Below, piece after piece: positions 1,004 through 25,911 of a stretch of DNA of 64,000 bases. The notes below the pieces were generated by a model that was not told the DNA's origin, ran no database searches, and saw only the letters and a program-made list of their open reading frames with translations. Made by a program: the position numbers and the translations under genes. Source of the stretch: a virus; IMG/VR virus record IMGVR_UViG_3300045988_144755; one strand, given 5' to 3'. Each line of letters begins with the position of its first letter. Position 1 is the first letter of the stretch.

Positions 1004-1008
1004 TTTTT

Positions 1009-1662: not shown

Positions 1663-1680
1663 GGTAGTTCTCCTTTTCAT

Positions 1681-2422: not shown

Positions 2423-2456
2423 TTGACATATGCGAAACAAATCTATAAATACATAT
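2423..2456 (+). promoter_or_regulatory. Sigma70-like promoter candidate for the rightward early operon
   Basis: TTGACA, 15-nt spacer, TATAAAT, upstream of the first + strand gene. Confidence 0.4.
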
Positions 2457-2556
2457 TTATTATTAAACCTGATGAACGTCTTGCCCTTGCCGCCCGCCGC
2501 CATGCGCGGGTATAGCCTTTGTGGGAAGACATAACCTTCAACCAGTTGGAGGAGGC

Positions 2557-2772: not shown

Positions 2773-2783
2773 GGGGAGATGGT

Positions 2784-3065: not shown

Positions 3066-3213
3066 TGCAGATGCAGAGTGAAGATGGTGCAGGCCAGTGC
3101 AGCAGGGGGTTCGATTATTTGATGGATCAGGGCTGCGCTGGCTTCGCCCGCCAGTGGGTGCCGGGGCGCGACGGAGATACGCGCTTGTATCAACTGAAAC
3201 CCCCGTCCAGTTG
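3064..3213 (+). CDS. Small hypothetical protein (49 aa)
   Basis: ATG overlaps the upstream stop (TGATG). Not in the ORF track because it is <60 aa. Translated by hand. Confidence 0.25.
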
Positions 3214-3251
3214 ATGCAGAGCCCGTAGCGTCAACCGGGGTTGACTGGAGG

Positions 3252-3587
3252 TTGATCAAGTTGCTGACGGATAAGGAACGAGAGTGGCTCACGGTGCGGA
3301 AGAAGGCTTGCGCCCGGTGCAGTGTGCCGGGCAAGTGCAGTCAGGATCAGCGTAATCATTGCTACGCAGTGGGCTACCCTCTGTGGGGCAGCACGGTGGT
3401 TACGTTTGAAGCCTTCCGGGATGCCGCCGAATTTGAGGCCCGCGTCTCCCGGCGGCTGGCGGTTATGCTGTATATGTTTCAGGGACTTACGGCCCTCAAG
3501 ATGCCGCCTCCAACGCCTGACTGGTTCTTGAAGCAGGCAAGGCTTGCTGAGGAGGCGGCTATGGAAAGGGAGGTATGTGATGCCTGA
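3252..3587 (+). CDS. Hypothetical early protein (111 aa), TTG start
   Basis: GGAGG RBS immediately upstream; Cys-rich N-terminus. Confidence 0.45.
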   Translation: MIKLLTDKEREWLTVRKKACARCSVPGKCSQDQRNHCYAVGYPLWGSTVVTFEAFRDAAEFEARVSRRLAVMLYMFQGLTALKMPPPTPDWFLKQARLAEEAAMEREVCDA

Positions 3588-3852
3588 TGCGTTGGATTTT
3601 CTGTTTGGGTTCTTGTCTGGTGTGGTTATGACGGTGGGGCTGTCCCTTTTGGTACCGTACAGGCACTTCAGGGATCGCCGCAAGTTGGAGGAGGAAAACA
3701 GGCGGGAGCTGATCGGTCTGAAGGACTCCCTGCGGGAAGGGGTCTATGCGTGCAGCGACCACATGCGCAACCTCCAGCGTGTTGCCGAGAGGGTGGAGTC
3801 CTACGCAAGAAAGCTGGATATGGAAATGAAAAAGGAGAAGTACAAGTGCTGA
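3580..3852 (+). CDS. Small membrane/coiled-coil protein (90 aa)
   Basis: GGGAGG RBS before internal Met (MPDALDF); TM helix then charged coiled-coil tail. Confidence 0.5.
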   Translation: MPDALDFLFGFLSGVVMTVGLSLLVPYRHFRDRRKLEEENRRELIGLKDSLREGVYACSDHMRNLQRVAERVESYARKLDMEMKKEKYKC

Positions 3853-4313
3853 AGGACTACAATTGCCTTCGCGGGCAGCCGCAGAATTATACGGCTGCCG
3901 AGTTCGATGTGTTCAAGAACGAGTGCGCCATCTGGATCAAACTCATGCAGCTTGGCGGGGAATGGGAGTTCTTCTGCGAGCCCGTATCCAATGCGGACAT
4001 GCGCGCCGAGACCTACGTCAATGATTCGGCCCGGCTGGTCAAGTTCCAGATGAACATGCACACGCATGACAATTTCAACTGGGATTACAAGGATTTGCAG
4101 AAGACTGCGTTCCATGAGGTGTGCGAGGTGCTGCTGTATGATCTGGAGCGGGTTGCCGCTATGGAGGACATCACGGCAGAACAGAAGGAAGCTATGCTGA
4201 TCCGGGAGCGGCACAAGGTCATCCACCATTTGGAGAAGTTGTTCTATCTGATGGATGAGACTGACACCATCGACAGTATGCGCAAAAATATCATCACACC
4301 GACAGAAGTGTAA
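3846..4313 (+). CDS. Hypothetical early protein (155 aa, GTG start)
   Basis: AAGGAG 8 nt before GTG; overlaps the upstream stop; in-frame with ORF 3750..4313. Confidence 0.45.
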   Translation: MLKDYNCLRGQPQNYTAAEFDVFKNECAIWIKLMQLGGEWEFFCEPVSNADMRAETYVNDSARLVKFQMNMHTHDNFNWDYKDLQKTAFHEVCEVLLYDLERVAAMEDITAEQKEAMLIRERHKVIHHLEKLFYLMDETDTIDSMRKNIITPTEV

Positions 4314-4445
4314 ACGGAACGGGCCGGAACTGGCGAAGGTTCCGGCCCTAGGAGGAGAGATGTGTGAAGTAAAGATGATGGGAAAAGAAGGTACGAAACT
4401 TAGATAAGGCGGGCGGCATGGATTGTCAAGCCCGCATGGGAGGAT

Positions 4446-4925
4446 ATGCAGATGCCGAAAGTGTTTCGCGTGTTTGCCGCATTGATGCTCGCCGCGTTCC
4501 TTTGCGTTCCGAACGCGGGCTGCACCAAGGACGAAGTGGCGCTCAACGCCTACAAGACGCTGGAGACGAGTGCCGAGACGTACAAGGCCGTCATGAACGC
4601 GGCGCAGGATTTGCACCGCATGGGGAAAATGACGGATGAGCAGTGGAATCAGGTCAAGGATTACGCGGTCGTCTACTTCGATTCGTACCAGACGGCGGTC
4701 GCCGCGCTGGTCAAATACGTTGAGGTCACGCAGGGGGTGAAGTCCCCCGGTGCCGAGGACGGGGAATCCAAGCCCTCTGCCGCCGAACAGGAGCAGAAAC
4801 TTGGCGACATGCTGTCGGGCTGCACCACGACGCTGAACGATCTGCTGGTCAAGGTGCAGGAACAGGATGTCGATGTCGCCAAGGCCAAGAGGGACTACGC
4901 GGAGGAATACGAAAATGCCTATTAA
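4446..4925 (+). CDS. Putative lipoprotein (159 aa)
   Basis: Signal peptide plus lipobox (LCVPNAGC) seen in translation; GGGAGG RBS. Confidence 0.6.
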   Translation: MQMPKVFRVFAALMLAAFLCVPNAGCTKDEVALNAYKTLETSAETYKAVMNAAQDLHRMGKMTDEQWNQVKDYAVVYFDSYQTAVAALVKYVEVTQGVKSPGAEDGESKPSAAEQEQKLGDMLSGCTTTLNDLLVKVQEQDVDVAKAKRDYAEEYENAY

Positions 4926-5091
4926 TGCCGTGTCTGTTGCCGTCATTATGGAAGTCATCGGGCTCATCGTCAAACATGGCGTGCCCGCTGTGAAGGCCAT
5001 GATTGAAACGTGGGAGAAGGATGAGATTACCCTTGAGGATGTCAAGGCCCTCGCCCACAAGATTGACCACCCGGATACCTACGATGTTTGA
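4915..5091 (+). CDS. Small hypothetical protein (58 aa)
   Basis: Internal Met of ORF 4867..5091 overlapping the upstream stop, suggesting translational coupling. Confidence 0.4.
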   Translation: MPINAVSVAVIMEVIGLIVKHGVPAVKAMIETWEKDEITLEDVKALAHKIDHPDTYDV

Positions 5092-5332
5092 TGATCCCGG
5101 CCCGAAGGGGGAACGCGACCCCGACTGGAAGCCGCCGAAGACAGGCTGGTCTAGGTGGGAGCAGTTGACCGAGTGGGATGTGTATGTGGAGACGGCAAAA
5201 AAGTTCTCCGAGATGATGGGCAGGGAGGTCAGCACTGAGGAAGCGAAGGCGCTCTGCAAAGAGTACGACCGGATATGGAATAAAATGGTGTACGACTTTA
5301 CCCATATTGACAAACCTTGGGGCATACAGTAG
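5084..5332 (+). CDS. Small hypothetical protein (82 aa)
   Basis: Internal Met (MFDDPG) of ORF 5003..5332; ATG overlaps the upstream stop. Confidence 0.45.
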   Translation: MFDDPGPKGERDPDWKPPKTGWSRWEQLTEWDVYVETAKKFSEMMGREVSTEEAKALCKEYDRIWNKMVYDFTHIDKPWGIQ

Positions 5333-5438
5333 CGTCTGGTTGTCTCAGTTGTTCTTCAGCATCAATGATTGACGGGAGCGTACAGGGTTTTCGGGAAGCC
5401 CTGTGTGCTCCCGTCTTTCTTTTTTCCAAGGAGCGGTT

Positions 5439-6032
5439 ATGTCTGAATATACTCGCGAACGTATCGAAGCGGTCATGCGGGCCAAGGGGTACGCCTTCTT
5501 TACCGAGGGCGACTACAACCTGAACCTTCTTGCCGTCCGCTCCGGGCGGGAGGCGACCAACCTGTTTGACGATACGTTCCTTGCCGTCTTCAAGGTGGAC
5601 GGCGCATGGGAAACCCGTGAGTATGTCTGCACGACCGACCCCGGAACCTACTGGCTGCGGAACGGGCTTGAGAAAGGCACGGCGGTGCTCGCCCCCGGAC
5701 AGTACCGTGGGGCGTTCGCCCTTGGAAAGCACAAGGGCGAGTACGAGGCGTTGGTGCAGGCGGCCCCGGTGACGGTCTACCGCGACGGGAACAAGGACGA
5801 TGCGCTGGATTATGTGGCTCCCGAAACGGGGATGTTCGGCATCAATATACATCGGGCCAACCGGAACGGGGTATCCTTCTACGTGGACAAGTGGTCTGCG
5901 GGCTGCGTGGTCATTGCGGGCGCGGATGCGTTCGACGACCTGATGGGGCTGGTGCATAAGTCCTTGGCGATGGGCGTCTATGGGATGCGGTTTACGTTTA
6001 CGCTTTTTGAAAAGCGGGACTTCAAAATATGA
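5439..6032 (+). CDS. Putative cell-wall enzyme with L,D-transpeptidase (YkuD)-like His...Cys signature; candidate endolysin
   Basis: AAGGAG RBS. Motif NIHRANRNG...SAGCVVI...AFDDLMGLV resembles the YkuD catalytic HG(T)..(S/T)HGC(I)R(M) block. Lies immediately upstream of a holin-like gene. Confidence 0.5.
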   Translation: MSEYTRERIEAVMRAKGYAFFTEGDYNLNLLAVRSGREATNLFDDTFLAVFKVDGAWETREYVCTTDPGTYWLRNGLEKGTAVLAPGQYRGAFALGKHKGEYEALVQAAPVTVYRDGNKDDALDYVAPETGMFGINIHRANRNGVSFYVDKWSAGCVVIAGADAFDDLMGLVHKSLAMGVYGMRFTFTLFEKRDFKI

Positions 6033-6622
6033 GCGGTGCGTCTTCGGCTACGGGTGCGTTCATTGAGCTCCGGGTCTGGGTTACGCATTATGTAGAGCAG
6101 CTTATGACCGGAGCCAGCATCAAGGTTTTTTTCGCGTCTGTGCTTACGTTCTTTACGAACGTGCTCTATGGCGACAAGGTGGTGTTCATGATCTACCTTG
6201 CGTTCGCCCTGCTTGATCTCGTGCTCGGCGTTACGAAAGCCATCGTGTACGACAGCTTCAACCCCAAGTACCTGTTGTACTGGGTAAAGAAGTTGGGGAC
6301 GCATATGCTGCTCATCCTCCTGTTGGGGCTCTTGTGCAATGCGTTCTTCCACACGTCCGGGATAACGGTTTCGTTTGTGAACTGGATGCTGTTCATTTGC
6401 TCCACTACCGAGCTTGCGAGCATCATCTGGAATCTGAAGTCGCTTGGGATGCCCGTGCCGCCTGTTGTGGATGTGTTTCTCAAGGCGCTGCGCAAGCGTG
6501 CGTCTTCTCATATCGCGCAGTGTTTTGGGGATGATGAGATGCGGCAGGAAATCGAAAAGGCATTGCAGCAGTACAAGTCGTGCGACGACTGCTCAGGATG
6601 CGGAAGGCATCCGCATGAATGA
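6029..6622 (+). CDS. Holin-like membrane protein (Phage_holin_4_1 / phi-LC3-like signature)
   Basis: Multiple TM helices. LDLVLGVTKAIVYDSFNPKYLLYWVKKLG resembles the DxxTGxxKA...KK core of that holin family. Start overlaps the upstream stop (ATGA). Confidence 0.5.
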   Translation: MSGASSATGAFIELRVWVTHYVEQLMTGASIKVFFASVLTFFTNVLYGDKVVFMIYLAFALLDLVLGVTKAIVYDSFNPKYLLYWVKKLGTHMLLILLLGLLCNAFFHTSGITVSFVNWMLFICSTTELASIIWNLKSLGMPVPPVVDVFLKALRKRASSHIAQCFGDDEMRQEIEKALQQYKSCDDCSGCGRHPHE

Positions 6623-6699
6623 TTGTAATCCTTGAACGATTTTGCTACCGTTGAATTGGCTGAGTTTTCTAGTAGGAACGCATGTAGGAGTTTTTCATC

Positions 6700-7899
6700 A
6701 TGGGTAAGTTTCCAGTCACATACGATGAAAAGCTGAAGCAGCATCGGTTGATGGTCGATGGCGAGTTGCTTGTGCCCGGCGTTGTCCCCGTGGATACGAC
6801 GCAGGGCAAGGGGCCGAACCATCTTCAGGTTGATGCCGATGCTGGCTTGGCTGTCCGGTCTGAGACGTTCGTCTCGACCGATGACGGCAACCAGCTTGAA
6901 GTCGGGCAGGATGGCAAGCTCTTCGTTCGGGAAGTGTCCCCCGATTCGTTGCTGTCTCAGGACAAGAGCAACCAGCTCTCCGTTACGGACGGCATCTATT
7001 ACAACGTGGGCGACCATCTGAGCGAGGACGAAAACAACCTTCTGGTTGCGCGGGACGGCAAGCTCTTCGTCGGCAAGGTGTCCGCCGTCTCTGACGATGA
7101 GGGCAACATCTTGCAGCAGGGCACCGACTCCGGCGCGTTGCTGAAGATGGACAGCCTTGTCTCGCTCGACCTTGGGAACCGGATCGTCCTCGGTTCGGAC
7201 AACAAGCTGTCCGCGCCCGTGCAGCTTTCCAAGGAAGAAGGCAACTTCCTTCGTCTCGGCAACGACCAGATGCTGTACATCAACGGCGCTGACATCGTTT
7301 CCAACGAAGCCAAGAACATGCTGGAAGTGTCTTCCAGAGACGGCAAGCTCTTCGTAAGCCGCGACAATCTGGTTCCCCCGCCCATCGTGGCGGAAGACGA
7401 AGGGAACATTATCGTCGCGGGCGGCGACGGCGGTGCCCTTCTGAAGATGGCGATGCTCGTTTCCCACGAGGAAGAGAACTATCTCATCATTTCGGAAGAG
7501 GACAACCGACTTGTCGTGCGCAGCCCGTTGTCCATGCAGGAGGGGAACTATCTCCGGCATGGCGAGGACGGCGGCATCTTTGCTGACGGCAACGATTTGT
7601 TGTCCAATGAATCCGATAACATCCTTGGCATCTCGAAGGTCGATGGCAAGATTTATCTGAGCCACGAAGACTATGTGACCACGGTGTCCAAGGAAAACGG
7701 CAATGTCCTTCGCCCCGGTGCGGATGGCGGTGCCCTGCTTCTCATTGAAGACCTCATCTCCAAGGACGCCCAGAACAGCATCGTTGAAGGCAGCGACAAG
7801 CTCTTGTATGTCCGGGCCGTGTCCAAGGATAAGGGCAATGCAGTCACCCCCGGTTCCGATTTCGGGAGCTTCTTCCCGGCTGATTTCGGAACCATGTAA
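6700..7899 (+). CDS. Tail fibre protein with phage-fibre repeats (399 aa)
   Basis: ≥8 copies of an SxD/E+xNxLxxGxDG(K/G)L(F/Y)V-type motif, like PF03406 phage tail fibre repeats; AGGAG RBS. Confidence 0.7.
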   Translation: MGKFPVTYDEKLKQHRLMVDGELLVPGVVPVDTTQGKGPNHLQVDADAGLAVRSETFVSTDDGNQLEVGQDGKLFVREVSPDSLLSQDKSNQLSVTDGIYYNVGDHLSEDENNLLVARDGKLFVGKVSAVSDDEGNILQQGTDSGALLKMDSLVSLDLGNRIVLGSDNKLSAPVQLSKEEGNFLRLGNDQMLYINGADIVSNEAKNMLEVSSRDGKLFVSRDNLVPPPIVAEDEGNIIVAGGDGGALLKMAMLVSHEEENYLIISEEDNRLVVRSPLSMQEGNYLRHGEDGGIFADGNDLLSNESDNILGISKVDGKIYLSHEDYVTTVSKENGNVLRPGADGGALLLIEDLISKDAQNSIVEGSDKLLYVRAVSKDKGNAVTPGSDFGSFFPADFGTM

Positions 7900-7926
7900 C
7901 CAAAATAAATCACAGGAGTATTTATC

Positions 7927-9270
7927 ATGGCTCGTAAAACGCCGCAGGCCATTCAGCAGTACCGTGGTACCACCGAACAGCACGCCACCTACACTGGCCC
8001 CATTGGTGAACTCACCGTCGATACCGACAAGAAGGTTGTCGTTGTTCAGGATGGCACTACCGCTGGCGGTATCCCGATGGCCCGCGAAGACCGCAAGGTT
8101 GCTGGCGATGCGTACATCAAGGTGAACAACGCTGCCGAGGGCACCCTTGCTGCCGACCTGACCCTTACCGTGGATATGACGCAGGTCGCCGCTGACCTCG
8201 TTTCCACCGATGAAAACAACGGCCTGTCCGTAGGCACCGACAACAAGCTGTTCGCCAAGGCTCCTGATGCCGATCTCATCCTTCGCCCCAACGACAAAAT
8301 CCTCCATGACGTGGACGGCAAGGTTGCCGCTGACATCTCCGTCAGCTACGACCAGCCCTCTGGCGTTCTGAACATCATCGGTCATGACGGTTCCACCGTT
8401 GTCGCTACCGCCACTATCCCCTCCAGTACGTCCGCCCTGAAGGGCGTCGAGCTCGTGGAAGGCAAGCCTTCCGCTGACGGCGAGGAAGTCGAAGGCGACT
8501 ACCATGTGAGCCTGCGCGTGGCTTATAAGCAGGGTGGTGCCCAGAAGTATTCCGATGCCGCTGGCGTGACCTTCACCGCCACCAAGGGCACCGAGAGCGC
8601 GGGCGTCGCCATGCCTGAGTTCACCGTGCCTGAAGACGCTACGGATCAGAAGTACGAAGCCGTGTTCATGGGTCAGGAAGCGGAACAGGCCGTGGCTGCC
8701 ACTGCCGCCTTCGCGTTCACCGATGGCTCCACCATGCGCCTTGCGGAAGGTATGCTGTACTTCACCCCGCAGATCGGCATCGAAGCTGGCACCTACCTGC
8801 ACTTCATCTTCGTGCTGTCTGACGGCACCCTCGCCGACCTGTACATTGACGTTACCGACCTCGTGGACGTGTACACCGCCGGACAGGGCATCTCCATTTC
8901 CGGCAAGGTGATCTCCGTCAAGCTCGGCGCTGATGGCGGCGTGAAGTTCGACGAATCCGGCAACATCGTGGTGGACTTCACCAAGATTGTTTCCACCGAT
9001 GAAGACAATGCGCTGAAGGAAGGCGCTGACGGCAAGCTCTCTGTGACGGTCGTGTCCGCTGATGAAGGGAACCTCATCAAGACGGGCTCGGACAAGGGCG
9101 CTCTGCTGACCAAGGACGACATCACCGACGCGGTGGAAGAAATCGTGTCCGGTGTCGTCACCGCCGGAACCATGTGCTCCGAGCTTCGTGCCGAAACCGC
9201 TGACAACCAGATTGTCTGCAATGCTGGCAAGATGTACGTCACTTCCGATTACGGCACGATGGGCGAGTAA
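7927..9270 (+). CDS. Tail fibre protein (447 aa) with conserved N-terminal virion-anchor motif
   Basis: N-terminus QQYRGTTEQHATYTGPIGELTVDTDKKVVVVQDGTTAGG is the tail-fibre/HylP-type N-terminal motif; also PF03406-like repeats; AGGAG RBS. Confidence 0.75.
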   Translation: MARKTPQAIQQYRGTTEQHATYTGPIGELTVDTDKKVVVVQDGTTAGGIPMAREDRKVAGDAYIKVNNAAEGTLAADLTLTVDMTQVAADLVSTDENNGLSVGTDNKLFAKAPDADLILRPNDKILHDVDGKVAADISVSYDQPSGVLNIIGHDGSTVVATATIPSSTSALKGVELVEGKPSADGEEVEGDYHVSLRVAYKQGGAQKYSDAAGVTFTATKGTESAGVAMPEFTVPEDATDQKYEAVFMGQEAEQAVAATAAFAFTDGSTMRLAEGMLYFTPQIGIEAGTYLHFIFVLSDGTLADLYIDVTDLVDVYTAGQGISISGKVISVKLGADGGVKFDESGNIVVDFTKIVSTDEDNALKEGADGKLSVTVVSADEGNLIKTGSDKGALLTKDDITDAVEEIVSGVVTAGTMCSELRAETADNQIVCNAGKMYVTSDYGTMGE

Positions 9271-9311
9271 TATCGCAATCTTATAACCCTTTAAAATAGG
9301 GGGATAATATT

Positions 9312-10166
9312 ATGGCTATGGATGGCCTGACTCCTGTGGTTGACATTGGTGGTAATGGCAATGGCGGTTGGGGTGATTGGGGCGGTGCCCTGATCGGCGG
9401 AGCTATTGGTGGTGCCGTTGGTTCCGCATGGGGCGACCGTCGCGGGAACAACTGCTGCAATAACGGCGGCGGTTGCTGCAACAATGGCGGGAATACCGCT
9501 GCCTTTGGTGAGACGTTCATCATGGACAGCCTGAGCGGTGCCCGGAGCGACATCAACTCCATCGGGCGTGACAACCTGATGCAGACCGCGGGCGTCCAGA
9601 ATGCACTGTGTCAGGGCTTCGGTGGCGTCAACGCCACTGTGGAACGTACCGCCCTTGGGCAGCAGATTACCTCGGCGCAGGGATTCAGCGGGCTCAACAC
9701 TGCGATTCTCACCAGTTCCATGCAGGGCCAGCTCGCCGCCAAGGACGCGCAGCTTTCTGCTCTTGCCGCTACCAATGCGGCTGAGATGCAGGGCCTGCGC
9801 AATACTTTCGAGCTGAAGTCCAGCATCGACAATTGCTGCTGCACCACGCAGCGTTCCATCGACAATCAGGGTTGCCAGACTCGTGAAACCATCCTTGCCG
9901 AAGGGTGCGCCACCCGTGGCGCTATCCATCAGGAAGGGGAAGCTACCCGCGCTCTGATTGCCCAGATTGACCGCGAACGCCTGCTGCGTGAAATGAACGC
10001 CAAGGATGCGGAAATCGCGTCCCTCAAGGCGCAGAACTTCAACACTGCGCTGGCGAACAACAACGCGGCCCAGACTCGTGCGGACATGCAGTCCATGTTG
10101 AACACCATCTTGAACCACATGACCTACAAGACTTCTACCACCTCTGGTGGCGGAACCACTGCCTGA
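9312..10166 (+). CDS. Gly/Cys-rich hypothetical protein with coiled coil (284 aa)
   Basis: RBS AGGGGGA. Peptide NNCCNNGGGCCNNGGN, then Gln/Ala-rich coiled-coil segment and a second Cys cluster (NCCCTTQ...GCQTRE...GCATRG). Confidence 0.5.
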   Translation: MAMDGLTPVVDIGGNGNGGWGDWGGALIGGAIGGAVGSAWGDRRGNNCCNNGGGCCNNGGNTAAFGETFIMDSLSGARSDINSIGRDNLMQTAGVQNALCQGFGGVNATVERTALGQQITSAQGFSGLNTAILTSSMQGQLAAKDAQLSALAATNAAEMQGLRNTFELKSSIDNCCCTTQRSIDNQGCQTRETILAEGCATRGAIHQEGEATRALIAQIDRERLLREMNAKDAEIASLKAQNFNTALANNNAAQTRADMQSMLNTILNHMTYKTSTTSGGGTTA

Positions 10167-11787: not shown

Positions 11788-12777
11788 ATGCCTCGCAAAA
11801 TTCCTAAGCCAGTACAGCAGTTTCGCGGGACGACTGCGCAGCACGCTACCTATACTGGCCCAGAGGGTGAAATCACCGTTGATACCACAAAGCACACGGC
11901 AGTTGTGCATGATGGGCAGACGGCTGGCGGCTTCCCTTTGATGCGGGAGCATGACATTGTCGATGATGTGCAGATTACGGCATCTGTCGGCACTGCTGAG
12001 GCTATTTGGAATGTGTCTGTCGCTGTCGCTGATGGTGACGGTAGTTGGACTGCTCCTTTGGCCTTGAGCATCCAAGGCAAAGTTAATACGCCCATTGCAA
12101 GGGTCGTGAACGCGCAGCCCGGTGCTGACCATCTTGGAGGCGTGCGGGTTGTCTACAAGGGGGAAACGCAGCAGGCACAGACTGGTTTCTCTCAGACTGG
12201 CGGGACGGCAAATTTCTCGTTCACTGACGGGACTACTTGTGCGGTGGTTGCTGCGGCTGAATCTGATGGGAAACAGGCTATCACGTTTACGTTCACGTTT
12301 GCCGCTACTGCCAGTGGGCCGTTCCTGTGTGTTTCTGGCGTGCGCAAGAATGTGGCCTATGAAGTTGCCGATCCGCTCCTGTCTCAAGACCCGATGAACG
12401 CCCTTACCGCTGGCACTGACGGTAAGATTATGCTCGACGGTTCTGGTCTGGACAAGAGCTATCTTCCGCTGTATTTTCCCTTTGAAAGTGATGAAATAGT
12501 GCCGGAAATCCATACGTTCTTCCCTGACCATTGCAGGGTCATTCTGGTGGATGGCCTTCAGTCTGATGGAACGAGCGTGGATGCTCTGGGCATCACGGTT
12601 CAGCTCGATGGGGACAGTGAGGGCACCTCGGCTGTGACGCTCAAGAATGGGCAGATTGACAGCGATGGCGCTTTTGCGGGAAAGGCTGTAGTCATTCGGT
12701 GTTCTGGGCGTACTACGGAGACGTGGGTTTCTGCGTTGCTTCGTCTGACCCCCACAATGCTGGCGTCCGATTTATAG
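11788..12777 (+). CDS. Second tail fibre paralog (329 aa) sharing the N-terminal anchor with 7927–9270
   Basis: N-terminus PVQQFRGTTAQHATYTGPEGEITVDTTKHTAVVHDGQTAGG is ~65% nt-identical to the start of 7927..9270; the C-terminus is unrelated. Confidence 0.7.
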   Translation: MPRKIPKPVQQFRGTTAQHATYTGPEGEITVDTTKHTAVVHDGQTAGGFPLMREHDIVDDVQITASVGTAEAIWNVSVAVADGDGSWTAPLALSIQGKVNTPIARVVNAQPGADHLGGVRVVYKGETQQAQTGFSQTGGTANFSFTDGTTCAVVAAAESDGKQAITFTFTFAATASGPFLCVSGVRKNVAYEVADPLLSQDPMNALTAGTDGKIMLDGSGLDKSYLPLYFPFESDEIVPEIHTFFPDHCRVILVDGLQSDGTSVDALGITVQLDGDSEGTSAVTLKNGQIDSDGAFAGKAVVIRCSGRTTETWVSALLRLTPTMLASDL

Positions 12778-12859: not shown

Positions 12860-14443
12860 ATGGACAGTTTGCTTTGTGGTTATCTGCGGTTTGGTAAGCC
12901 TTTGGAAAAGCAAAGTTTGCTTTTTGTAGTAGATACTGAAGCTACTACATCAGGAGGAGTACAAACGGCAAACCCAGTTCATGCTTTTCCTAGGCTATCT
13001 AGCGGTAATTTATCTACCGCTACTTTAACTATAGATTGGGGTGATGGTACTTCGACAACTATTCCAAAGAATACACCATACGATAATAATTACTTTACTG
13101 ATTATTCCACGCATACATATGAAGCTCCCGGAAAATATATTGTAACTGTAGAGGCGTATGATTTTTCTTCTTGTTCCTTTGGCGTAAATTCTAATACGTC
13201 TGCCGCATTTTCAAAATTAAAACTGTGGCGGGATACAGTAATTAGCATAGGCCCAGAAGATGCAGAAGAATATTCTTTGCCTTGTATGAAGAGCGATTTT
13301 TCATATGCTTTTGCTAGTTGTATGAAATTGACCAAAGTACCATTCGGATTATTTAAGAATAATCCGATGATTACTGATTTTTATAGTGTATTTTATTTTT
13401 GTACAGCATTAACTGAAATTCCAGAAGATTTATTCGCGTATACTGATAAAGTTACTAATTTATCTTTTGCTTTTTGTAATTGTATAAAATTGACAGGGCC
13501 TATCCCGGAAGGGTTGTTCGCTAATAATCCCGCTGTAACGTCATTTGACAATATATTCCAGCAATGTACAGAGTTAACAGGGCCTATCCCGGAAGGGTTG
13601 TTCGCTAATAATCCTGCTGTAACGTCATTTGACAATATATTCCAGCAATGCACAAAGCTATCAGGGTCTATCCCGGAAGGGTTGTTCGCTAATAATCCTG
13701 CTGTAACGTCATTTAACTACACATTCTACGAGTGTTTAGGATTAACTGGTACTATTCCTGAAGGGCTGTTCGCTAGTAACCCTGATGTAACGTCATTTGA
13801 TAATACATTTGTGCGCTGCGCAGGGTTGTCAGGGTCTATTCCTGAAGGGCTGTTCGCCAATAATCTTGCTGTAACGTCATTTGATAGTACATTCATGCAA
13901 TGTGCAGGGTTAACAGGGTCTATCCCAGAAAATTTGTTCGCCAATAACACTGCTGTGACTTCATTTGATTCTGTATTTTATGCTTGCTACTCGTTAGCAG
14001 GAGATATTCCTGAGAATTTATTTATTCATAATAATGAAGTAACTTCATTTGCTGGTGCATTTTTTGCTTGTAGAGAATTAACAGGGGCTATTCCTAGCGG
14101 TTTATTCTCTAGCAAGACTAAACTAACTTCTGTTGAACGTGTGTTTGAAGGATGCACAGGATTAACGGGGGCTATTCCTGAAGAACTTTTTGCTAGTAGT
14201 CCTTTAATCACTTCATTCAGTTATGTGTTTTCTGAATGTACAGGGTTAACGGCGGTACCTAAAGCACTTTTTGAAGAAAATATAAATGCTGTAACTTTTA
14301 TTGAGACATTTTATGGTTGTTCTGGTATAACAAGTGAAGTTCCTGAGCTGTGGATTTCACACCCGGATGCGACAGGCACATACTGCTATTTGCGCTGCAC
14401 CAATGCCGCCAACTACGCTGATATTCCCGCTGATTGGAGATAA
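12860..14443 (+). CDS. PKD-domain + BspA-type leucine-rich-repeat protein (527 aa), low-GC
   Basis: PKD signature IDWGDGTST...HTYEAPGKYIVTV. ~13 tandem 23-aa repeats (LTGxIPEGLFANNPAVTSFDNxFxxC), BspA/TpLRR-like. GC ~38% in a 60% GC genome. GGAGGG RBS. Confidence 0.75.
   Translation: MDSLLCGYLRFGKPLEKQSLLFVVDTEATTSGGVQTANPVHAFPRLSSGNLSTATLTIDWGDGTSTTIPKNTPYDNNYFTDYSTHTYEAPGKYIVTVEAYDFSSCSFGVNSNTSAAFSKLKLWRDTVISIGPEDAEEYSLPCMKSDFSYAFASCMKLTKVPFGLFKNNPMITDFYSVFYFCTALTEIPEDLFAYTDKVTNLSFAFCNCIKLTGPIPEGLFANNPAVTSFDNIFQQCTELTGPIPEGLFANNPAVTSFDNIFQQCTKLSGSIPEGLFANNPAVTSFNYTFYECLGLTGTIPEGLFASNPDVTSFDNTFVRCAGLSGSIPEGLFANNLAVTSFDSTFMQCAGLTGSIPENLFANNTAVTSFDSVFYACYSLAGDIPENLFIHNNEVTSFAGAFFACRELTGAIPSGLFSSKTKLTSVERVFEGCTGLTGAIPEELFASSPLITSFSYVFSECTGLTAVPKALFEENINAVTFIETFYGCSGITSEVPELWISHPDATGTYCYLRCTNAANYADIPADWR
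13494..13700 (+). repeat. Three near-identical 69-bp tandem repeats inside the LRR gene
   Basis: gggcctatcccggaagggttgttcgctaataatcc.gctgtaacgtcatttgacaatatattccagcaatg repeated ×3 at ~97% identity; flanked by more diverged copies. Confidence 0.8.
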
Positions 14444-14472
14444 GGTATACCCATAACCAAGGAGCGATTGCT

Positions 14473-14643
14473 ATGGATTCATCCCCGATTGAGCCCCCTG
14501 TTCAGTGCCAGCCTGTAGTTGTTCAGTGTACGTGCTGCCAGTCGGTGCGGCAGAATGAAGAGCTTGACCCAATCGGGGGTGTTTTCCTTGTTCTGTTTAT
14601 AGTGTTTGCCGCTTCTCTGGGCGTATGGTTACATAGGAGTTGA
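14473..14643 (+). CDS. Small Cys-rich membrane protein (56 aa)
   Basis: AAGGAG RBS before internal Met of ORF 14434..14643; C-terminal TM helix. Confidence 0.35.
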   Translation: MDSSPIEPPVQCQPVVVQCTCCQSVRQNEELDPIGGVFLVLFIVFAASLGVWLHRS

Positions 14644-14656
14644 GGCTGCGAAATAA

Positions 14657-14697
14657 AAGCTCCCTACCCGATGAAGGTAGGGAGCTTTTTTACGGGC
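14657..14697 (+). terminator. Rho-independent terminator ending the rightward fibre/LRR operon
   Basis: gctccctacc-cgatgaa-ggtagggagc followed by tttttt. The ORF-track start 14671 sits in the loop, so it is not a real start. Confidence 0.7.
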
Positions 14698-14712
14698 CTC
14701 GCCTTTTTCATA

Positions 14713-14761
14713 GGCGGCACCTCCACGGTATCGTTCAGTGTGAGTGCCTCGACATATGCGC
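14713..14761. repeat. Left 49-bp inverted repeat (putative inversion crossover site) at the start of the promoterless fibre cassette
   Basis: ggcggcacctccacggtatcgttcagtgtgagtgcctcgacatatgcgc. Its reverse complement matches 16079–16127 with 1 mismatch. Encodes the shared peptide GGTSTVSFSVSASTYAL. Confidence 0.8.
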
Positions 14762-15228
14762 TCACGTTAACATCCCCGACCAATGTAAAGACTAGGGTTC
14801 CTGAGCCTGTTACTTTTAATGTAACAAAAAATAATAAACCTTATACTGGCCCGGTGCAGCTTACTTCTAATATCTCACAAGTACCTGCACAAACTATTAA
14901 TGCACAAAATGGTGTTGGGTCTACGACTATTACTTTTACAGTACATGGAGATTATATTATTTATTTGTCTGTTGGCGATTTGACTACACAATATAATTAT
15001 TCGACTACAGCTTTAACTTACGAATATGTTAATCTTGGTGACGATATAACTGGATGGACTTGCCCGCCATCTGCTCCTTTGTATCTTTATTGGCATGGCG
15101 TGCGTGTTTACCAAGCTAATGGCCCGGATACTACATCAACACGTATTCAAGCAAGTAATGGTAAAGTATATTACAAAGGAGTACACCAATCAATGTATAG
15201 TTACTCTATTGCAGAATATGACCATTAA
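14762..15228 (+). other. Promoterless, start-less alternative C-terminal cassette for the Ig-like adhesin, inverted relative to the gene it would fuse to
   Basis: Frame is open from the inverted repeat. Encodes an Ig-like segment (TFNVTKNNKPYTGPVQ...TITFTV) plus a distinct ~90-aa C-terminal domain. Begins directly after a terminator, so it is silent in this orientation. GC ~38%. Confidence 0.55.
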
Positions 15229-15511
15229 TGGCGCGTCCACCACGATTGCAGGGGAGGCGAAGCCCGGCCCAACCTATCTGTATGATAATGAGCATGTTTG
15301 GACTGTTTCCAGAACTAACCTTCCCGGAGGGATGGAGTTCAATTCGGTCTTTTGTATTTGGGGTGGTCAGTCTATTGCAAATACTATGGACTTGGATGCT
15401 ACTTCGGTGGTTGGTTCTGATGGATATACATACCTTCGCGGGGAATATCAGGAACAAGAAGTGAGTGGGTCTACCACAAACAGCCATTACTCCATAGCCA
15501 GACAAGAATAA
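15218..15511 (+). CDS. Cassette-internal small ORF (97 aa), homologous to the extreme C-terminus of the 15552–18956 protein
   Basis: MTINGASTTIAGEAKPGPTYLYDN...YTYLRGE...HYSIARQE versus ASTTIAGEAKPEPVYKYDD...HTYLRGE...KYAIARQV; ATG overlaps the upstream TAA. Confidence 0.45.
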   Translation: MTINGASTTIAGEAKPGPTYLYDNEHVWTVSRTNLPGGMEFNSVFCIWGGQSIANTMDLDATSVVGSDGYTYLRGEYQEQEVSGSTTNSHYSIARQE

Positions 15512-15518
15512 AACAGTT

Positions 15519-15545
15519 CCGCCCGCTACATTTAGTAGCGGGCGG
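15519..15545. terminator. Hairpin between convergent cassette and adhesin gene (possible bidirectional terminator)
   Basis: ccgcccgctac-attt-agtagcgggcgg; modest T-runs on both sides. Confidence 0.4.
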
Positions 15546-15551
15546 ATTCAT

Positions 15552-18500
15552 TTATACCTGCCGTGCTATGGCATATTTATGTGTTCTTGTGTACGACTGG
15601 TCATTCGTTTCTTTCAGTTCTCCACGAAGATATGTATGACCATCAATACCCTCGGTAGGAGTATCAGTATCTCCCCGACCGCCATTATAAGCGACCATCT
15701 GTCCTTCATAGAACAATATGACAAAAGATTCCCCTATACTACCGTCAGGAGACCAAGTACTCTGCCATGTCCAACTATTGCCATCATCATACTTGTACAC
15801 AGGTTCGGGCTTTGCCTCCCCTGCAATCGTGGTGGACGCGCCATTGCCAGAAGCATCAGTAAAGGACACGGTATACGAACCTCCATTCGCATTGGTGCTG
15901 GTTAAAGTTTCAGTGAATTGCCCTGCCGAATTGGTGGCCTTCGCCCCGGTGGTGCCGCCAGAAAGACCGCCAAAGCTCGTTACGCTAACCCCGCTGGTGA
16001 TGGGGTTGCCGTTGCGTTTGCAAGTGAAGGTGACGGCTGTAGCGGTATTGTACGCCAGCGTGTTCGGGCTTGCCGAAAGCGCATATGTCGAGGCGCTCAC
16101 ACTGAACGATACCGTGGAGGTGCCGCCGCCAAACGAGAGAGTCACGGTTTTGCTGCCTATGGACGTTGCCGTCAGGGAGACGGTGAACTTGCCACCGGAT
16201 GCTGTTGCCGAGGCAGGGCCAGAAAGCCCGGAGCTGTACGACAGACTGACGGAGCCAGCGTAGTTGGCGTTGTTCTTCTTGACCGTGAAGGTGACGGAGT
16301 CGGGGTCGTTGGTGTAGAGCTGAGAGATGTTTGCCGAAGCAGCGTAAGTAGCGGCTGCCACCGTAAATGTTGCCGTTGCTGACCCACCGCCGAACGAGAC
16401 GGTGACGGTTTTATTGCCCGTGGTGGTAGCGGTCAGCTTGTTCGTGCATTTGCCGTCAGTGGCAGTTGCCGAGGTGCTGCCGGAAAGCCCAGAGGGAAGC
16501 GAGAAGGTAACGGCACCATCATAAGCGACGTTGTTCCGCTTCACGGTGAACGTCACATTGGAAGCCAAATCTTCCGTCAGGGCTGTGGGCGAAGCCGATA
16601 CTGTGTATGTAGCTGCCGATACGGTGAAGGCAATGGCGTCTGAGCCACCGCCGTAGGTCAGAGTGATATTGCCTGCTGTAGTTCCGCTTGCTGCCACTGA
16701 GATGGTAAACTGACCAGAAGCGTTTGCCGTGGCAGATGCCGGGCCACTGAGGTTTCCGCTGTATTTGATGGTGACAGCCCCGGCATAAACTGCGTCGTTC
16801 TTCTTCACAGTGAAGGTGACGGACTTGCTGTTGTAGGCTTGGACGCTGGTGCTGTTGGCAGAGGCCGTGTAGGTGGCTGCCGAGATGGTCATGGTATCGG
16901 ACGCATTCCCGCCGCCGAAGGTAGCTTTGATGGTACCCGTTCCGGTGGCGTCTGCGGATACGTTGATGGTGAACTGACCAGAGGCGTTCGCTGTGGCGGA
17001 TGCCGGGCCAGAAAGCCCACCGCTGTACGTCAGCGTCACAGCGCCAGCGTAGGCCGCATTGTTCCGCTTCACGGTGCCAGTGATGGACTTTGTTTCATCA
17101 ACCCGGATGGTGGTAGGACTGACGACGAAGGAGTAGGTGGACGCTGTGACGGATACGGCGTCAGTCGCTGACCCACCACCAAAGGTAAACGTCAGGGTCT
17201 TGTTCCCGGCTGTGGTGGCGGTAGCCGTGAGTTTTACCACACCATCGGTTGCCGTAGCGGATGTGGTGCCGGAAATGCCCGTGGGATACTTCACGGTGAC
17301 GGCACCGGAATAGTTCTTGCCATTGCGTTTCACGGTAGCGGTGATGGTGCCGGAGACGTTGGTCTTGAGCGCAGCCGAGGTGATTTCAGCGGCATAGGTC
17401 GCAGCCTGAGTATCCACCGTGTAGGAGGCGCTTCCGCCGCCGAAGGTGGCTTTCACGGTGCCGTCTGCGGTTCCGGTTGAGGTCAACGTGATGCTGAACT
17501 GCCCAGAGGCATTGGAGGTAGCCTTTGTAGGCGTACCAGTGATGCCGCCAGAGTAGGCCAGCGTAACGGCCCCGGCATATGCCTTGCCGTTGCGGGTAAC
17601 AGTGATGGTGTAGTCAGCTTCCTCGTAGGCGGTGATAGTCTTGCTGCTGGCGTTGATGGCATACGTGGCGGCAGCAACGGTGATGTCCGCCGTATCCGTC
17701 CAGTCATCAACCTTGACCGTCAGCGTTTCCGTTCCGGTATCCTCATAGGTCGCCTTGTACGTGTACTTGCCTGCGGAGAATGTGACCGAGGTGCCGTTGA
17801 TGGTGCCCTTTCCGGCGTATGCCTTGCCGTTCCGGGTAACGGTCACAACGGTGGAACCCGCCTCATACTGCGTAAATTCATCGTTGGAGATTGCCAGCGT
17901 GTAGGTAGCGGCGGTTACGGTCGCGGACAGTTTCACGCTGCCGCCACCATAGGTTGCGGTGATTGTCCCGCTGCCCACGGTATTGCCTGTGATGGTGAAC
18001 GTCCCGGTGCCGGAAGAGTTGGTGGTGACTTTCGTATCACCGGATACGCCGCCGGAGTAGGCCAGCGTGATGGCACCAGCATAGGCTTTTCCGTTCCGTT
18101 TTGCGGTGATTGTGACTTCTGCGTCTTCAAACCGCTGAACAGTTTTAGGCGTGATGCTTGCCGTATAGGTGGCTTCAGTGACTGTGACGGATACAGCATC
18201 ACTGACAGTTCCGCCCCCGAAGGTGGCGCTGATGGTAGACGCGCCTGCGGTAGCGCCTGTGACGGTGATGGACACGAGGCCGGACGCATTCGAGGTTGTG
18301 GATTTTGTGCTGCTGGTAATGTTGCTGTTATGCGCGAGGGTGACGGCTCCCTGATACGGTTTTCCGTTTCGCTTGACCGTGAAGCTGACGGCCTCAGATT
18401 CGTATTCCTGCACCGTGTAGTCTTCAGCTTCAACGCTGTAGGTTGCCGCAGCTACAGTGACGGACAGCGTGATGGTTTGCCCATCAATGACCAACTTCAG

Positions 18501-18956
18501 GGATTGCTTCCCGGAAGTATTGTACGTTGTCGTATAGGTGGCCTTGCCGTTAGTGAAGGTAATGGCCTTGCCAGCAAGGGTAGCGGCACCGGAGTAGGCT
18601 ACGCCATTCCGTTTCGCAGTAATCGTAAGGGTGCCCTGTTCGTACTGCGTGAACGACCCGGACGAAGTTGCCGTGTATGTCGTTTGTGCGACGGGGTAGG
18701 TTTGATCCAGAACGGTGGTACCATTTACTTTTACAACGAGGGGATAATCTCCGGGAGCATCATGGGGGCCGAGGGTGACGTTTGCTACCCCGTTGGAGTT
18801 CAGAGTGTATTCCACCCCATTAACGCTGATTTTTTTTCCGGGAATGAGAAGGTCATTATCATAGAGGGTGATGGCGCTTGTGACCGTATCGCCAGTATAC
18901 TCTGGAAGCCCATCTACACTGGCGATGTAGAGATGGTCTGTGTAGTACCCGTACAT
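15552..18956 (-). CDS. Large Ig-like repeat adhesin / tail fibre (1134 aa)
   Basis: ~12 tandem ~90-aa bacterial-Ig-like repeats (TFTVKRNGKAYAGAVTLAYSGG...SATFGGG). On the opposite strand to the surrounding structural genes. C-terminal ~175 aa lie inside the IR-bounded segment. Confidence 0.8.
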   Translation of the reverse strand: MYGYYTDHLYIASVDGLPEYTGDTVTSAITLYDNDLLIPGKKISVNGVEYTLNSNGVANVTLGPHDAPGDYPLVVKVNGTTVLDQTYPVAQTTYTATSSGSFTQYEQGTLTITAKRNGVAYSGAATLAGKAITFTNGKATYTTTYNTSGKQSLKLVIDGQTITLSVTVAAATYSVEAEDYTVQEYESEAVSFTVKRNGKPYQGAVTLAHNSNITSSTKSTTSNASGLVSITVTGATAGASTISATFGGGTVSDAVSVTVTEATYTASITPKTVQRFEDAEVTITAKRNGKAYAGAITLAYSGGVSGDTKVTTNSSGTGTFTITGNTVGSGTITATYGGGSVKLSATVTAATYTLAISNDEFTQYEAGSTVVTVTRNGKAYAGKGTINGTSVTFSAGKYTYKATYEDTGTETLTVKVDDWTDTADITVAAATYAINASSKTITAYEEADYTITVTRNGKAYAGAVTLAYSGGITGTPTKATSNASGQFSITLTSTGTADGTVKATFGGGSASYTVDTQAATYAAEITSAALKTNVSGTITATVKRNGKNYSGAVTVKYPTGISGTTSATATDGVVKLTATATTAGNKTLTFTFGGGSATDAVSVTASTYSFVVSPTTIRVDETKSITGTVKRNNAAYAGAVTLTYSGGLSGPASATANASGQFTINVSADATGTGTIKATFGGGNASDTMTISAATYTASANSTSVQAYNSKSVTFTVKKNDAVYAGAVTIKYSGNLSGPASATANASGQFTISVAASGTTAGNITLTYGGGSDAIAFTVSAATYTVSASPTALTEDLASNVTFTVKRNNVAYDGAVTFSLPSGLSGSTSATATDGKCTNKLTATTTGNKTVTVSFGGGSATATFTVAAATYAASANISQLYTNDPDSVTFTVKKNNANYAGSVSLSYSSGLSGPASATASGGKFTVSLTATSIGSKTVTLSFGGGTSTVSFSVSASTYALSASPNTLAYNTATAVTFTCKRNGNPITSGVSVTSFGGLSGGTTGAKATNSAGQFTETLTSTNANGGSYTVSFTDASGNGASTTIAGEAKPEPVYKYDDGNSWTWQSTWSPDGSIGESFVILFYEGQMVAYNGGRGDTDTPTEGIDGHTYLRGELKETNDQSYTRTHKYAIARQV
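16079..16127. repeat. Right 49-bp inverted repeat inside the adhesin gene (constant/variable junction)
   Basis: gcgcatatgtcgaggcgctcacactgaacgataccgtggaggtgccgcc; inverted copy of 14713–14761. Confidence 0.8.
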
Positions 18957-19082
18957 AAACTCTCCTGAATTGTTAATGATTAAATACAGTTACTGTTAAG
19001 TATAAGGGAAATTTGCGAAGATGTAAATGTTGCGGTATGGAAGTAATTGCTTGCGGGTACAGAACTTTTCATCGGAGCGATA

Positions 19083-24840: not shown

Positions 24841-25911
24841 ATGTCTCAGGCAATGCCCGGCGGCACCGAACAGCCGCAGATTTCCAAAGCGTTTATGCGG
24901 GCTCCGTCCAATCCGTATTCTCGTATCGTCAACGAGAAGTTGCAGGCGATGAATAACCAAACGGCTACCCCGCCTGCGGCTCCGGTAACGCCTGCCCCTG
25001 CGCCGACCCCGGCTCCGGCGGCTACCCCGCCCGTGGCTCCGGTAACGCCTGCCCCTGCGCCGACCCCGGCCCCCAACCCGGCTCCAGCGGCTACCCCGCC
25101 TGTGCCCCCGGTGACGCCTGCCCCTGCGCCGACCCCGGCACCTGCCCCACAGCAGCAGACGTATGACCCTGCAATGGTTCACCAGCTCATGATGGAGCGG
25201 CAGCAGCTTTTGCAGGAGCGTGAGGAACTCGCACGTCAGGCTCAGGAACGCAACGACTTGGCTGCGGCTCTTGCGCAGGAACGTGAGGAACTGAGCAAGT
25301 ACCGTCAGCAGCAGCAGTTGCAGAACGCATTGCCGAAAGACGTTTTCGATTCTCTGGAATCCATCGACCCGGATGAAGCCAAGCGCATCACTGAAGCCGT
25401 GTTGCAGGCCACGCAGCAGATTGTCGCCCCTGTCCAGCAGGCGGTGTCACAGCAGGAACAGCGGGCCAATGAGGTGCTCTTGCAGGCGCGTCAGGACGCG
25501 GCGCGGGCGCGGGTGGAGCGGCAAAATGCCGAGATCATGCGGGTTCATCCCGATTTCTTTACCATCCTTAATTCGCCGCAGTATGCCGAGTTCATGTCTC
25601 AGCGGGACGGCCTGTCCTCCAAGACGCTCGATCAGCGTGCGGCTGAAGAATATACTATGGGGAACACGGCGTATGTCATTGACTTGCTGAACAAGTTCAA
25701 GGGCGCGAACGCGACTCCCCCCGTTTCCGAAACTGCCTATACTGTACCCCCTATCCAAGCGGCGGGCAGCAACGCAGTAGCGGCACCCTCGGCTGAGGAA
25801 CCCAACTATTCGTTGCGTGACCTCAATAACCTTTACCAGACGCGGCGCATAGGCCACGAGCAATACCTTGAAATGCTCAAACGGCTGCGGGCCGCGCCCA
25901 CCTCGAACTAG
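24841..25911 (+). CDS. Putative scaffolding protein (356 aa)
   Basis: Lies between portal and capsid genes. Pro/Ala/Thr-rich tandem repeats followed by a long Glu/Gln/Arg coiled coil. AGGAGCG RBS. Confidence 0.5.
   Translation: MSQAMPGGTEQPQISKAFMRAPSNPYSRIVNEKLQAMNNQTATPPAAPVTPAPAPTPAPAATPPVAPVTPAPAPTPAPNPAPAATPPVPPVTPAPAPTPAPAPQQQTYDPAMVHQLMMERQQLLQEREELARQAQERNDLAAALAQEREELSKYRQQQQLQNALPKDVFDSLESIDPDEAKRITEAVLQATQQIVAPVQQAVSQQEQRANEVLLQARQDAARARVERQNAEIMRVHPDFFTILNSPQYAEFMSQRDGLSSKTLDQRAAEEYTMGNTAYVIDLLNKFKGANATPPVSETAYTVPPIQAAGSNAVAAPSAEEPNYSLRDLNNLYQTRRIGHEQYLEMLKRLRAAPTSN
24964..25140 (+). repeat. ~60-bp tandem repeat ×3 within the scaffold-like gene (encodes PAPAPTPAPAATPPVAPVT)
   Basis: Seen directly at nucleotide and peptide level. 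Confidence 0.6.

Follow-up and report, generated by a model that had tools for sequence, protein, structure and literature searches.

A probable two-level DNA-inversion switch of adhesin tips in a human-gut phage without a recognizable recombinase

That temperate coliphages and plasmids switch cassettes by DNA inversion is textbook knowledge, and in these cases a cognate invertase is always involved. In Mu (G/Gin), P1 and P7 (C/Cin), e14 (P/Pin) and p15B (Min), a constant 5' part is combined with oppositely oriented 3' cassettes, the silent cassettes have no expression signals of their own, and both orientations are found in natural populations; p15B Min, in addition, has several crossover sites and many isomers. 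In the R64-type shufflon (Rci, sfx), several invertible segments encode alternative C-termini of one adhesin, the PilV tip adhesin. Here, we describe a locus that resembles these systems in its constant 5' part and its alternative, inverted 3' cassettes. It lies in the IMG/VR virus record IMGVR_UViG_3300045988_144755, a stretch of 64 kb that we refer to as the window, and comprises the 3' end of the minus-strand gene (15552-18956) of a 1134-aa adhesin. In the model that we suggest, this 3' end would function as a two-level DNA-inversion switch behind a constant N-terminus and a stalk of immunoglobulin (Ig)-like repeats. Exchange between the arms of an outer 50-nt inverted repeat (IRo) would turn 14763-16077 and replace the last Ig-like domain together with the distal domain (D+Cm) by cassette 1, while exchange between the arms of a nested, inner 40-nt repeat (IRi) would turn 15267-15805 and replace only the ~85-aa distal domain (Cm by C2).

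The likeness to Mu G, P1 C and shufflons proposed in a first-pass annotation of the window holds for the constant 5' part and the inverted 3' cassettes, but it extends neither to an invertase gene nor to a common recombination site. We scanned ~70 open reading frames (ORFs) of the window with Pfam and the region missing from it, as present in a relative (L010), with Pfam and PHROG, ~80 ORFs in total, and also drew on precomputed Pfam matches of four relatives. No serine, tyrosine or DEDD recombinase was recognized in the ~67-kb genome. Thus, the earlier statement that the window holds no recombinase is correct and applies equally to the ~3.9 kb outside it. Specifically, these ~80 ORFs gave no Pfam or PHROG match to a Resolvase-domain serine invertase, whereas in systems of the Mu/P1 type such a gene adjoins the segment, and the phage ORFs gave no match to Phage_integrase, the domain of rci-like genes. 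The repeats also differ from those of the Mu/P1 type in being GC-rich coding linkers without gix/hix-like A/T-rich half-sites; that they are unlike gix/hix had been noted before, and by inspection neither contains an AAACC/GGTTT-type half-site, although this comparison is a weak one. Moreover, the repeats form two unrelated pairs where those systems have a single type of site, no U/U'-type tail-fiber assembly gene is co-inverted, the target is an invasin-like Ig-repeat adhesin, and the carrier is an apparently virulent, podovirus-like human-gut phage with an SU10-type portal and adaptor, whereas Mu is a temperate myovirus. In contrast to the R64 shufflon, the locus has neither an rci-like gene nor a common 19-bp sfx-type repeat, and its segments are nested rather than arranged side by side.

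Flip-flop isomerization, as in the L and S segments of herpes simplex virus, in plastids and in a segment of Anabaena cyanophages, has no dedicated recombinase, as appears to be the case here, and the isomers co-exist and their orientation is independent of phylogeny, again as here. For the ~30-kb segment of the Anabaena cyanophages A-1(L)/N-1/Elbi, this isomerization has been described as recombinase-independent (bioRxiv 10.64898/2026.02.14.705889). However, the repeats of these systems measure 0.4-25 kb and their flips rearrange gene order and leave proteins unchanged, whereas here the repeats are intragenic, 40-50 nt long, and each flip yields a different protein. Of the marks of this class, we find homogenization of the repeat arms, but not long repeats of hundreds of bp to kb. 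Mechanistically, the switch may nevertheless belong with recombinase-independent inverted-repeat isomerization. A further parallel is provided by bacterial intragenic invertons and gene-altering inversions, in which repeats within coding sequence recode a gene, and for which nested inversions and prophage tail-fiber targets have been described (Chanin et al., PMC10028968; Milman et al., PMC9881135). Unlike the present locus, these catalogued invertons are located in bacterial chromosomes or prophages and neighboring recombinase genes are enriched (PMC10028968; PMC9881135). A method paper from 2026 reports "putative viral invertons", of which this locus is not one, and in the literature we found no report of the phage, the locus, or a counterpart without recombinase in any virulent phage of the gut. 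The locus is also distinct from Mtd-type diversity-generating retroelements in that its repeats are inverted and 98% identical and in that no scan of the genome detected such an element or a reverse transcriptase; the likeness is confined to two neighboring proteins that carry Mtd_N as N-terminal domain only.

In a repeat search of 13000-18000, the arms of IRo, given as 49 bp in the first-pass annotation, are 50 nt long, 98% complementary and 1315 nt apart, with a T/C pair at repeat position 33 as the sole mismatch (Table 1). IRi has one mismatch over its 40 nt and extends to 77 nt at 79% identity (15227-15303/15769-15845). Because these two rank best among the only four inverted repeats in the whole window that reach 26 nt, and both are at the adhesin 3' locus, a chance origin is excluded. 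Both copies of IRo encode, in frame, the same peptide, GGTSTVSFSVSASTYAL, as the annotation had observed, while IRi encodes NGASTTIAGEAKP; in AlphaFold2 models (mean predicted local distance difference test score 87), both peptides are linkers between predicted beta-domains. Because the repeats encode inter-domain linkers, every isomer would be an in-frame fusion. The cassettes and the adjoining leucine-rich repeat (LRR) gene have a GC content of 38-47% and the stalk of ~58%, and the plus-strand copies of the repeats stay at the level of the stalk. IRo and IRi have no motif in common, with 528 of 2000 shuffles aligning equally well.

Table 1. Features of the adhesin locus (positions in the window)
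Feature	Position	Strand	Remarks
Terminator hairpin, 14-bp stem and T-run	14655..14689	+	Ends upstream plus-strand operon; holds spurious in-frame ATG 14671
IRo-L, outer left arm	14713..14762		GGTSTVSFSVSASTYAL on plus strand; GC-rich like stalk, next cassette AT-rich
Cassette 1 (B)	14763..15228	+	Ig-like segment and distal domain; stop 15226-15228; silent in window
IRi-L, inner left arm	15227..15266		NGASTTIAGEAKP; overlaps cassette 1 stop codon
Cassette 2 (C2), silent distal domain	15267..15511	+	GPTYLYDNEHVW...IARQE, then stop (15509-15511)
Bidirectional terminator hairpin, 12-bp stem	15518..15546		Between convergent distal-domain cassettes; 3' of whichever is expressed
Cm, distal domain of adhesin in window	15552..15805	-	EPVYKYDD...IARQV; stop 15552-15554
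IRi-R, inner right arm	15806..15845		From repeat search
D, last Ig-like domain of adhesin in window	15846..16077	-	Within outer invertible segment
IRo-R, outer right arm	16078..16127		From repeat search
Adhesin constant part	16128..18956	-	N-terminal ~90 aa and Big_1/Invasin_D3-type Ig stalk; ATG 18956 after AGGAGAG
Promoter-like site TTTACA, 17-nt spacer, TATACT	18999..19027	-	Serves lone minus-strand adhesin unit

The adhesin gene is a stand-alone transcription unit with its own promoter-like site and AGGAGAG ribosome-binding site, while the silent cassettes appear from their sequence to have neither. The frame of cassette 1, opened by IRo-L, comprises 171 codons, matching the ~170 estimated in the annotation. 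The annotation correctly placed this plus-strand repeat copy just after a terminator, but it overlooked an in-frame ATG inside the terminator stem when stating that there is no start codon; this ATG is not preceded by a Shine-Dalgarno sequence, and it causes gene callers to report a 185-aa ORF. The downstream ORF, described previously as 97 aa long, is likewise real but has 94 codons, starts at 15227 with the then unrecognized IRi, and is in a different frame from cassette 1. The bidirectional terminator inside the inner segment would end the transcript in each state. As judged by translation from each repeat copy in ~28 genomes, the ORFs of the silent cassettes are intact in every case. The ratio of nonsynonymous to synonymous polymorphism is 0.26-0.6 for cassette 1, D+Cm and Cm; for C2 it is ~1.2 on 22 sites, and the integrity of the C2 ORF alone carries no statistical weight.

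Related contigs were collected by an exact-match repeat scan of IMG/VR and metagenomes, by exact-protein look-ups of flanking genes and by a protein-anchored scan, and were sorted using a segment-by-segment blast map; some IMG/VR and ENA entries possibly derive from one sample. All are consensus assemblies, not reads, and come from MEGAHIT (k141), SPAdes and IMG/VR, with k-mers longer than the 40-50-nt repeats. The annotation had suggested looking for both orientations in nature; ~25 public contigs, 97-100% identical, are found in three arrangements. Ten have the arrangement of the window (state 0: window/L008 [ERZ909700, run ERR688639], L021, L025, L031, L032, L033, L034, L038 and the variants L028 and L036), with a 1134-aa adhesin ending in D+Cm. 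In ten outer-flipped contigs (L023, L024, L027, L030, L035, L040, L041, L043, L046, L022), 14713-16127 is inverted relative to both flanks, cassette 1 is joined in frame to the stalk to give an adhesin of 1114 aa, and the silent ORF has 205 aa instead of 185 aa; one of these (L022) carries a silent cassette of another kind. In the remaining five, inner-flipped contigs (L029, L037, L019, L015, L020), only 15267-15805 is inverted and the adhesin of 1131 aa ends in cassette 2 or its variant C2b. The called adhesin genes match the predicted fusion lengths of 1114 and 1131 aa exactly. Thus, three of the four possible isomers are present in nature. The annotation was right that inversion swaps the C-terminal tip, one outer-flipped contig being isogenic with an unflipped genome; what it pictured as a single switch, however, has two levels, since IRi alone swaps the distal domain.

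The isogenic k141 pair, L038 (ERZ27240225) in state 0 and L035 (ERZ27240293) in the outer-flipped state, differs by one single-nucleotide polymorphism (SNP) in 10,171 bp, and their 1415-bp segments have 0 differences once one of them is flipped. The allele of this segment is strain-specific, its identity to the window being 95% for D and 96% for Cm. A further flipped genome, L040 (ERZ27240155), has the same flank SNP as L038. Moreover, 1346 bp of the right flank are identical in four genomes that represent all three states (L019 inner-flipped, L043 [ERZ27240224] and L035 outer-flipped, L038 state 0), and, overall, the states are interspersed among flank haplotypes, i.e. orientation is independent of flank phylogeny. 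Because of the isogenic pair and because orientation does not track the flanks, we are confident that the switch is real and inverts recurrently, and we have little doubt that a flip changes the distal domain of the adhesin. A 1412-nt SPAdes contig (L014, ERZ1673697) ends exactly at the outer edges of both IRo arms; such a break in the assembly graph is expected if both orientations occur in one sample, with which the contig is consistent without proving it.

We suggest that strand exchange would occur by homology-dependent general recombination on the 40-50-nt repeats rather than by a dedicated invertase. The agents would be phage functions for recombination-dependent replication (exonuclease, resolvase-like protein) and/or host RecA; among the phage genes are those of a PD-(D/E)XK exonuclease (53779-54477) and of an endonuclease/Holliday-junction-resolvase-like protein (53472-53861). 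Homologous recombination is one of three mechanisms offered in the first-pass annotation, next to a distal or host invertase and a new mechanism, and it is the one to which the evidence leans. The arms of each repeat change together. In IRo, a C-to-T substitution at position 14 and a G-to-A substitution at position 46 are present in both arms of L031 and L036, and of 27 genomes, 25 have either T/T or C/C at position 33; in IRi, the variants at positions 9, 18 and 21-22 are shared by both arms in nearly every genome. This concerted evolution argues for gene conversion between arms and thereby for homology, because heteroduplex repair copies substitutions from one arm to the other, while no such copying results from conservative site-specific exchange. 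At IRi position 33, C2 is accompanied by G and Cm by A, whichever the orientation; because this base stays with its cassette, the crossovers in L029 and L037 are located within IRi positions 1-32. The edge markers (IRi 33; IRo 46 and 49) are mostly cassette-linked, yet mosaic in L023, L025 and L020 (IRo GCGCT/ACGCT/ACGAT). Thus, the end-points of exchange may vary, although only a few events are available and the mosaics could also have arisen by point mutation. That IRo and IRi both invert without a common motif also speaks for homology. In systems like those of T7 and lambda, a few tens of bp of homology suffice for efficient recombination. We consider the odds that homology-dependent exchange drives the flips to be even or slightly better. 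The outcome would be a population with three alternative adhesin tips, to which strains with C2b or an Ig-only cassette 3 would add more, and the dominant orientation in each gut would be set by selection, e.g. by varying host or mucosal ligands. For this explanation as a whole, we estimate a probability of roughly 0.55.

The same switch could be operated by a site-specific invertase acting in trans, either a RecV/Mpi-like enzyme of the host or a phage protein without recognizable family (ORFan), at cores within IRo and IRi. All well-studied fiber and pilus switches (Mu G, P1 C, p15B Min, R64 shufflon) use such an enzyme; the flips are precise and reciprocal (L038/L035), the three states are common at ~10:10:5, in line with a high switching rate, and IRo holds the dyad GGCAC(N23)GTGCC. 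However, neither a recombinase domain in the ~67-kb genome nor a motif common to IRo and IRi was found, and conservative exchange leaves unexplained the substitutions that were copied to both arms across the whole repeat. We also know of no precedent for a virulent-looking phage that relies on a host invertase, which counts further against this explanation. The sole recombinase fragment near IRo is in a 1412-nt gut contig (L016, OLRH01028810.1, positions 738-1412), in which Cm-IRi-D-IRo and 8 nt of stalk are joined to a tyrosine integrase gene, of which the 5' two-thirds are present. The integrase is 90% identical to a prophage integrase of a Subdoligranulum variabile metagenome-assembled genome (L045, SFKI01000051.1). 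We rejected it as the switch recombinase because the junction is without homology and the integrase is truncated, so that the contig is most likely a chimera; even so, it possibly hints at Subdoligranulum as host clade. Together with the GC content, this hint makes Oscillospiraceae such as Subdoligranulum, Gemmiger or Faecalibacterium candidate hosts. On balance, an invertase in trans is a possible but clearly less probable alternative to homology-dependent exchange. Slightly more doubtful still is that a virulent phage has a programmed, high-frequency, multi-state adhesin switch that would either be enzyme-free via minimal linker substrates or depend on an ORFan as a new invertase acting on two unrelated sites.

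Flips might also be by-products of replication, generated by RecA-independent, replication-coupled template switching (fork reversal, strand misalignment). Microhomology-type rearrangements at or near the repeats (L039, L042, L020, L029) fit this idea, as does the fact that neither a recombinase nor an annealing protein was recognized, but the products of template switching are usually non-reciprocal or imprecise, whereas the observed flips are precise and reciprocal, and arm homogenization is explained no better than by ordinary recombination. We therefore regard template switching as improbable, although the present data do not separate it from homology-driven exchange. Finally, the arrangements could represent old, fixed strain differences or assembly errors without ongoing switching: the assemblies used are all consensus sequences, and repeats of 40-50 nt can be mis-joined in k=31 Logan contigs. 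The MEGAHIT k141 and SPAdes k-mers, by contrast, span the repeats, and different assemblers and databases return the same three in-frame arrangements. Together with the isogenic pair, in which a strain-specific segment allele is identical once flipped, the scattering of states across flank haplotypes and the concerted evolution of the arms, this largely refutes a static polymorphism or artefact, which we consider very improbable.

Several points weigh against homology-dependent exchange and the model built on it. None of the present data names the catalyzing enzyme, and the homology route is our deduction. Repeats of 40-50 nt are short for recombination of the RecA type, and neither a strand-annealing nor a RecA-like protein was recognized in the phage. 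About half of the phage ORFs are ORFans, leaving room for a novel recombinase; two of them, of 419 aa and 429 aa, have no Pfam, PHROG or PDB match, and a phmmer search of three large ORFans against PDB gave no match. Some multi-site invertases, e.g. RecV of C. difficile, use repeats with little mutual similarity, and therefore the missing common motif is not decisive. Selection for the function of an invertase is another possible reason for the identity of the arms. The (T,C) mismatch of the IRo arms is present in no flipped genome, and no crossover was thus mapped in IRo. The fourth isomer, with both flips, is seen in k=31 Logan contigs alone (P0004/L047); as these cannot link across the repeats, we did not count it. 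A role of the adhesin in adsorption is likewise deduced rather than established. Lastly, the third-best inverted repeat of the window (961-997/1686-1722, 37 nt, 92%) is colinear, not inverted, in all four relatives viewed, which is uninformative. This repeat is at the low-GC start of the window and flanks a 226-aa ORFan (1009-1689, minus strand).

The adhesin has Pfam matches of Ig type only (Big_1, Invasin_D3 and Big_3_5 Ig-like repeats), and its N-terminus has no homologue among GenBank phages. Five types of distal domain were found, i.e. Cm, C2, C2b, the cassette 1 type and another in L017; their alignment shows Y, W and G positions that do not vary and a common tail (...G.TY.RG...Y(S/A)IA...). 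An Ig-only cassette 3 is joined to IRo in L022 and L017. The pool across the population comprises at least six cassettes. The distal domain is modeled as a five-strand antiparallel beta structure, for which searches of PDB and BFVD gave no significant match; among viral folds, the best match is a Gp38-domain receptor-recognizing protein (TM 0.58, E = 0.02), and a two-domain model weakly resembles Yersinia InvE and InvD. Protein searches with cassette 1, D+Cm and a profile of the distal domain retrieved nothing beyond short "silent ORF" clusters. Isoforms cannot be counted in this way, because the full-length ones are merged in one 90% cluster. Mosaic distal domains with a C2 head and a Cm or C2b tail are seen in P0008, P0009 and L048 (4001-4294). 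Head and tail meet where the two convergent cassettes have the conserved motif DG(H/Y)TYLRGE, which may mark a third, low-homology exchange point. We set the L048 mosaic cassette aside, since the sole DNA for these mosaics is a k=31 Logan contig in which mis-joins are possible.

Three independent deletions have an end-point within IRo-L. In L039 (position 5242), 14722-18582 are gone, i.e. 3.9 kb with most of the adhesin gene, at an 8-nt microhomology, GCGGCACC; in L042 (1241-1321), the IRo arms are fused as a palindrome and the entire invertible segment is lost; and in L020 (same contig as L007), cassette 1 is lost by a deletion from IRo position 42 to just beyond IRi. Because of the deletions in L039 and L042, and because a sister species lacks the gene, the adhesin appears to be dispensable. 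For this reason, "tail fiber" and "host range", the terms used in the annotation, are interpretations, not facts; with Ig-type Pfam matches only, no significant fold match of the distal domain and the gene deleted in one genome, neither is established. The stalk varies by whole Ig-repeat blocks, giving adhesins of 1546 aa in L027, 1568 aa in L029 and 1222 aa in L036. L029 has a 1311-nt tandem duplication of the stalk, the junction of which joins IRo sequence to an upstream repeat at a CGAC microhomology; with only 4-5 nt of microhomology at this junction, we did not use the duplication as evidence for homologous recombination.

These data support raising the locus from a candidate switch to one for which three of four isomers are seen in nature, with a nested level and a cassette pool added. 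What is new is a cassette switch in a widespread, uncultured gut phage, with two nested flip points and without recognizable invertase. If general recombination on 40-50-nt linkers indeed drives it, phase-variable receptor-binding proteins would be within the evolutionary reach of any phage, with no enzyme to be acquired, and searches for invertons that are anchored on recombinases would systematically miss such switches. Short-read assemblies collapse or break at the locus and protein clustering at 90% identity masks the isoforms. Strain-level inference of host range or mucus adherence for this phage requires orientation-aware analysis.

The window is identified as phage by a holin, two Mtd_N tail proteins, an SU10-type portal and adaptor and an SNF2 helicase; it also encodes a PolA split by an HNH gene, a DUF927 primase, CobT/CobS-like proteins and the PD-(D/E)XK exonuclease. 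Because a 67,855-bp human-gut contig in ENA is 100% identical to the window across 23.4 kb, the window is short of the genome by only ~3.9 kb; the whole phage genome is probably ~67 kb, of which the window is nearly all. Genes adjoining the switch are indexed in 400-579 blocks of a public collection, and the phage is thus very common. In a megablast search, neither GenBank phages nor E. coli genomes gave a match to 14000-17000, and the nearest cultured relatives of the portal are marine and rhizobial podophages at 22-27% identity; by these two comparisons, the phage has no close cultured relative. In positions 1-9500 of a sister species (L054, IMGVR_UViG_3300045988_109512; terminase 73% identical), the region between the tail genes and TerS contains neither a minus-strand adhesin gene nor an inverted repeat. 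For this reason, the adhesin and its switch look like an accessory insertion.

Immediately upstream of the switch, 12860-14443 encodes an LRR/DUF285 (BspA-like) protein with a PKD-like N-terminus, 84-nt tandem repeats and a GC content of 38%. Among relatives, this protein has 527, 471, 391 or 348 aa or is absent, making its gene a second hypervariable surface-protein gene. The two Mtd_N (major tropism determinant N-terminal) domain proteins are encoded at 7927-9270 and 11788-12777. In the window, the family A polymerase gene polA (54482-57404) is interrupted by an HNH endonuclease gene (55522-56103); PolA is uninterrupted in L010 and L011 (1087 aa) and has 716 aa in L012 and L013. A 356-aa protein of the structural region (24841-25911) with short tandem repeats (around 24962-25139) varies from 314 to 360 aa in relatives, and 43754-44536 encodes a 260-aa protein with collagen triple-helix repeats.

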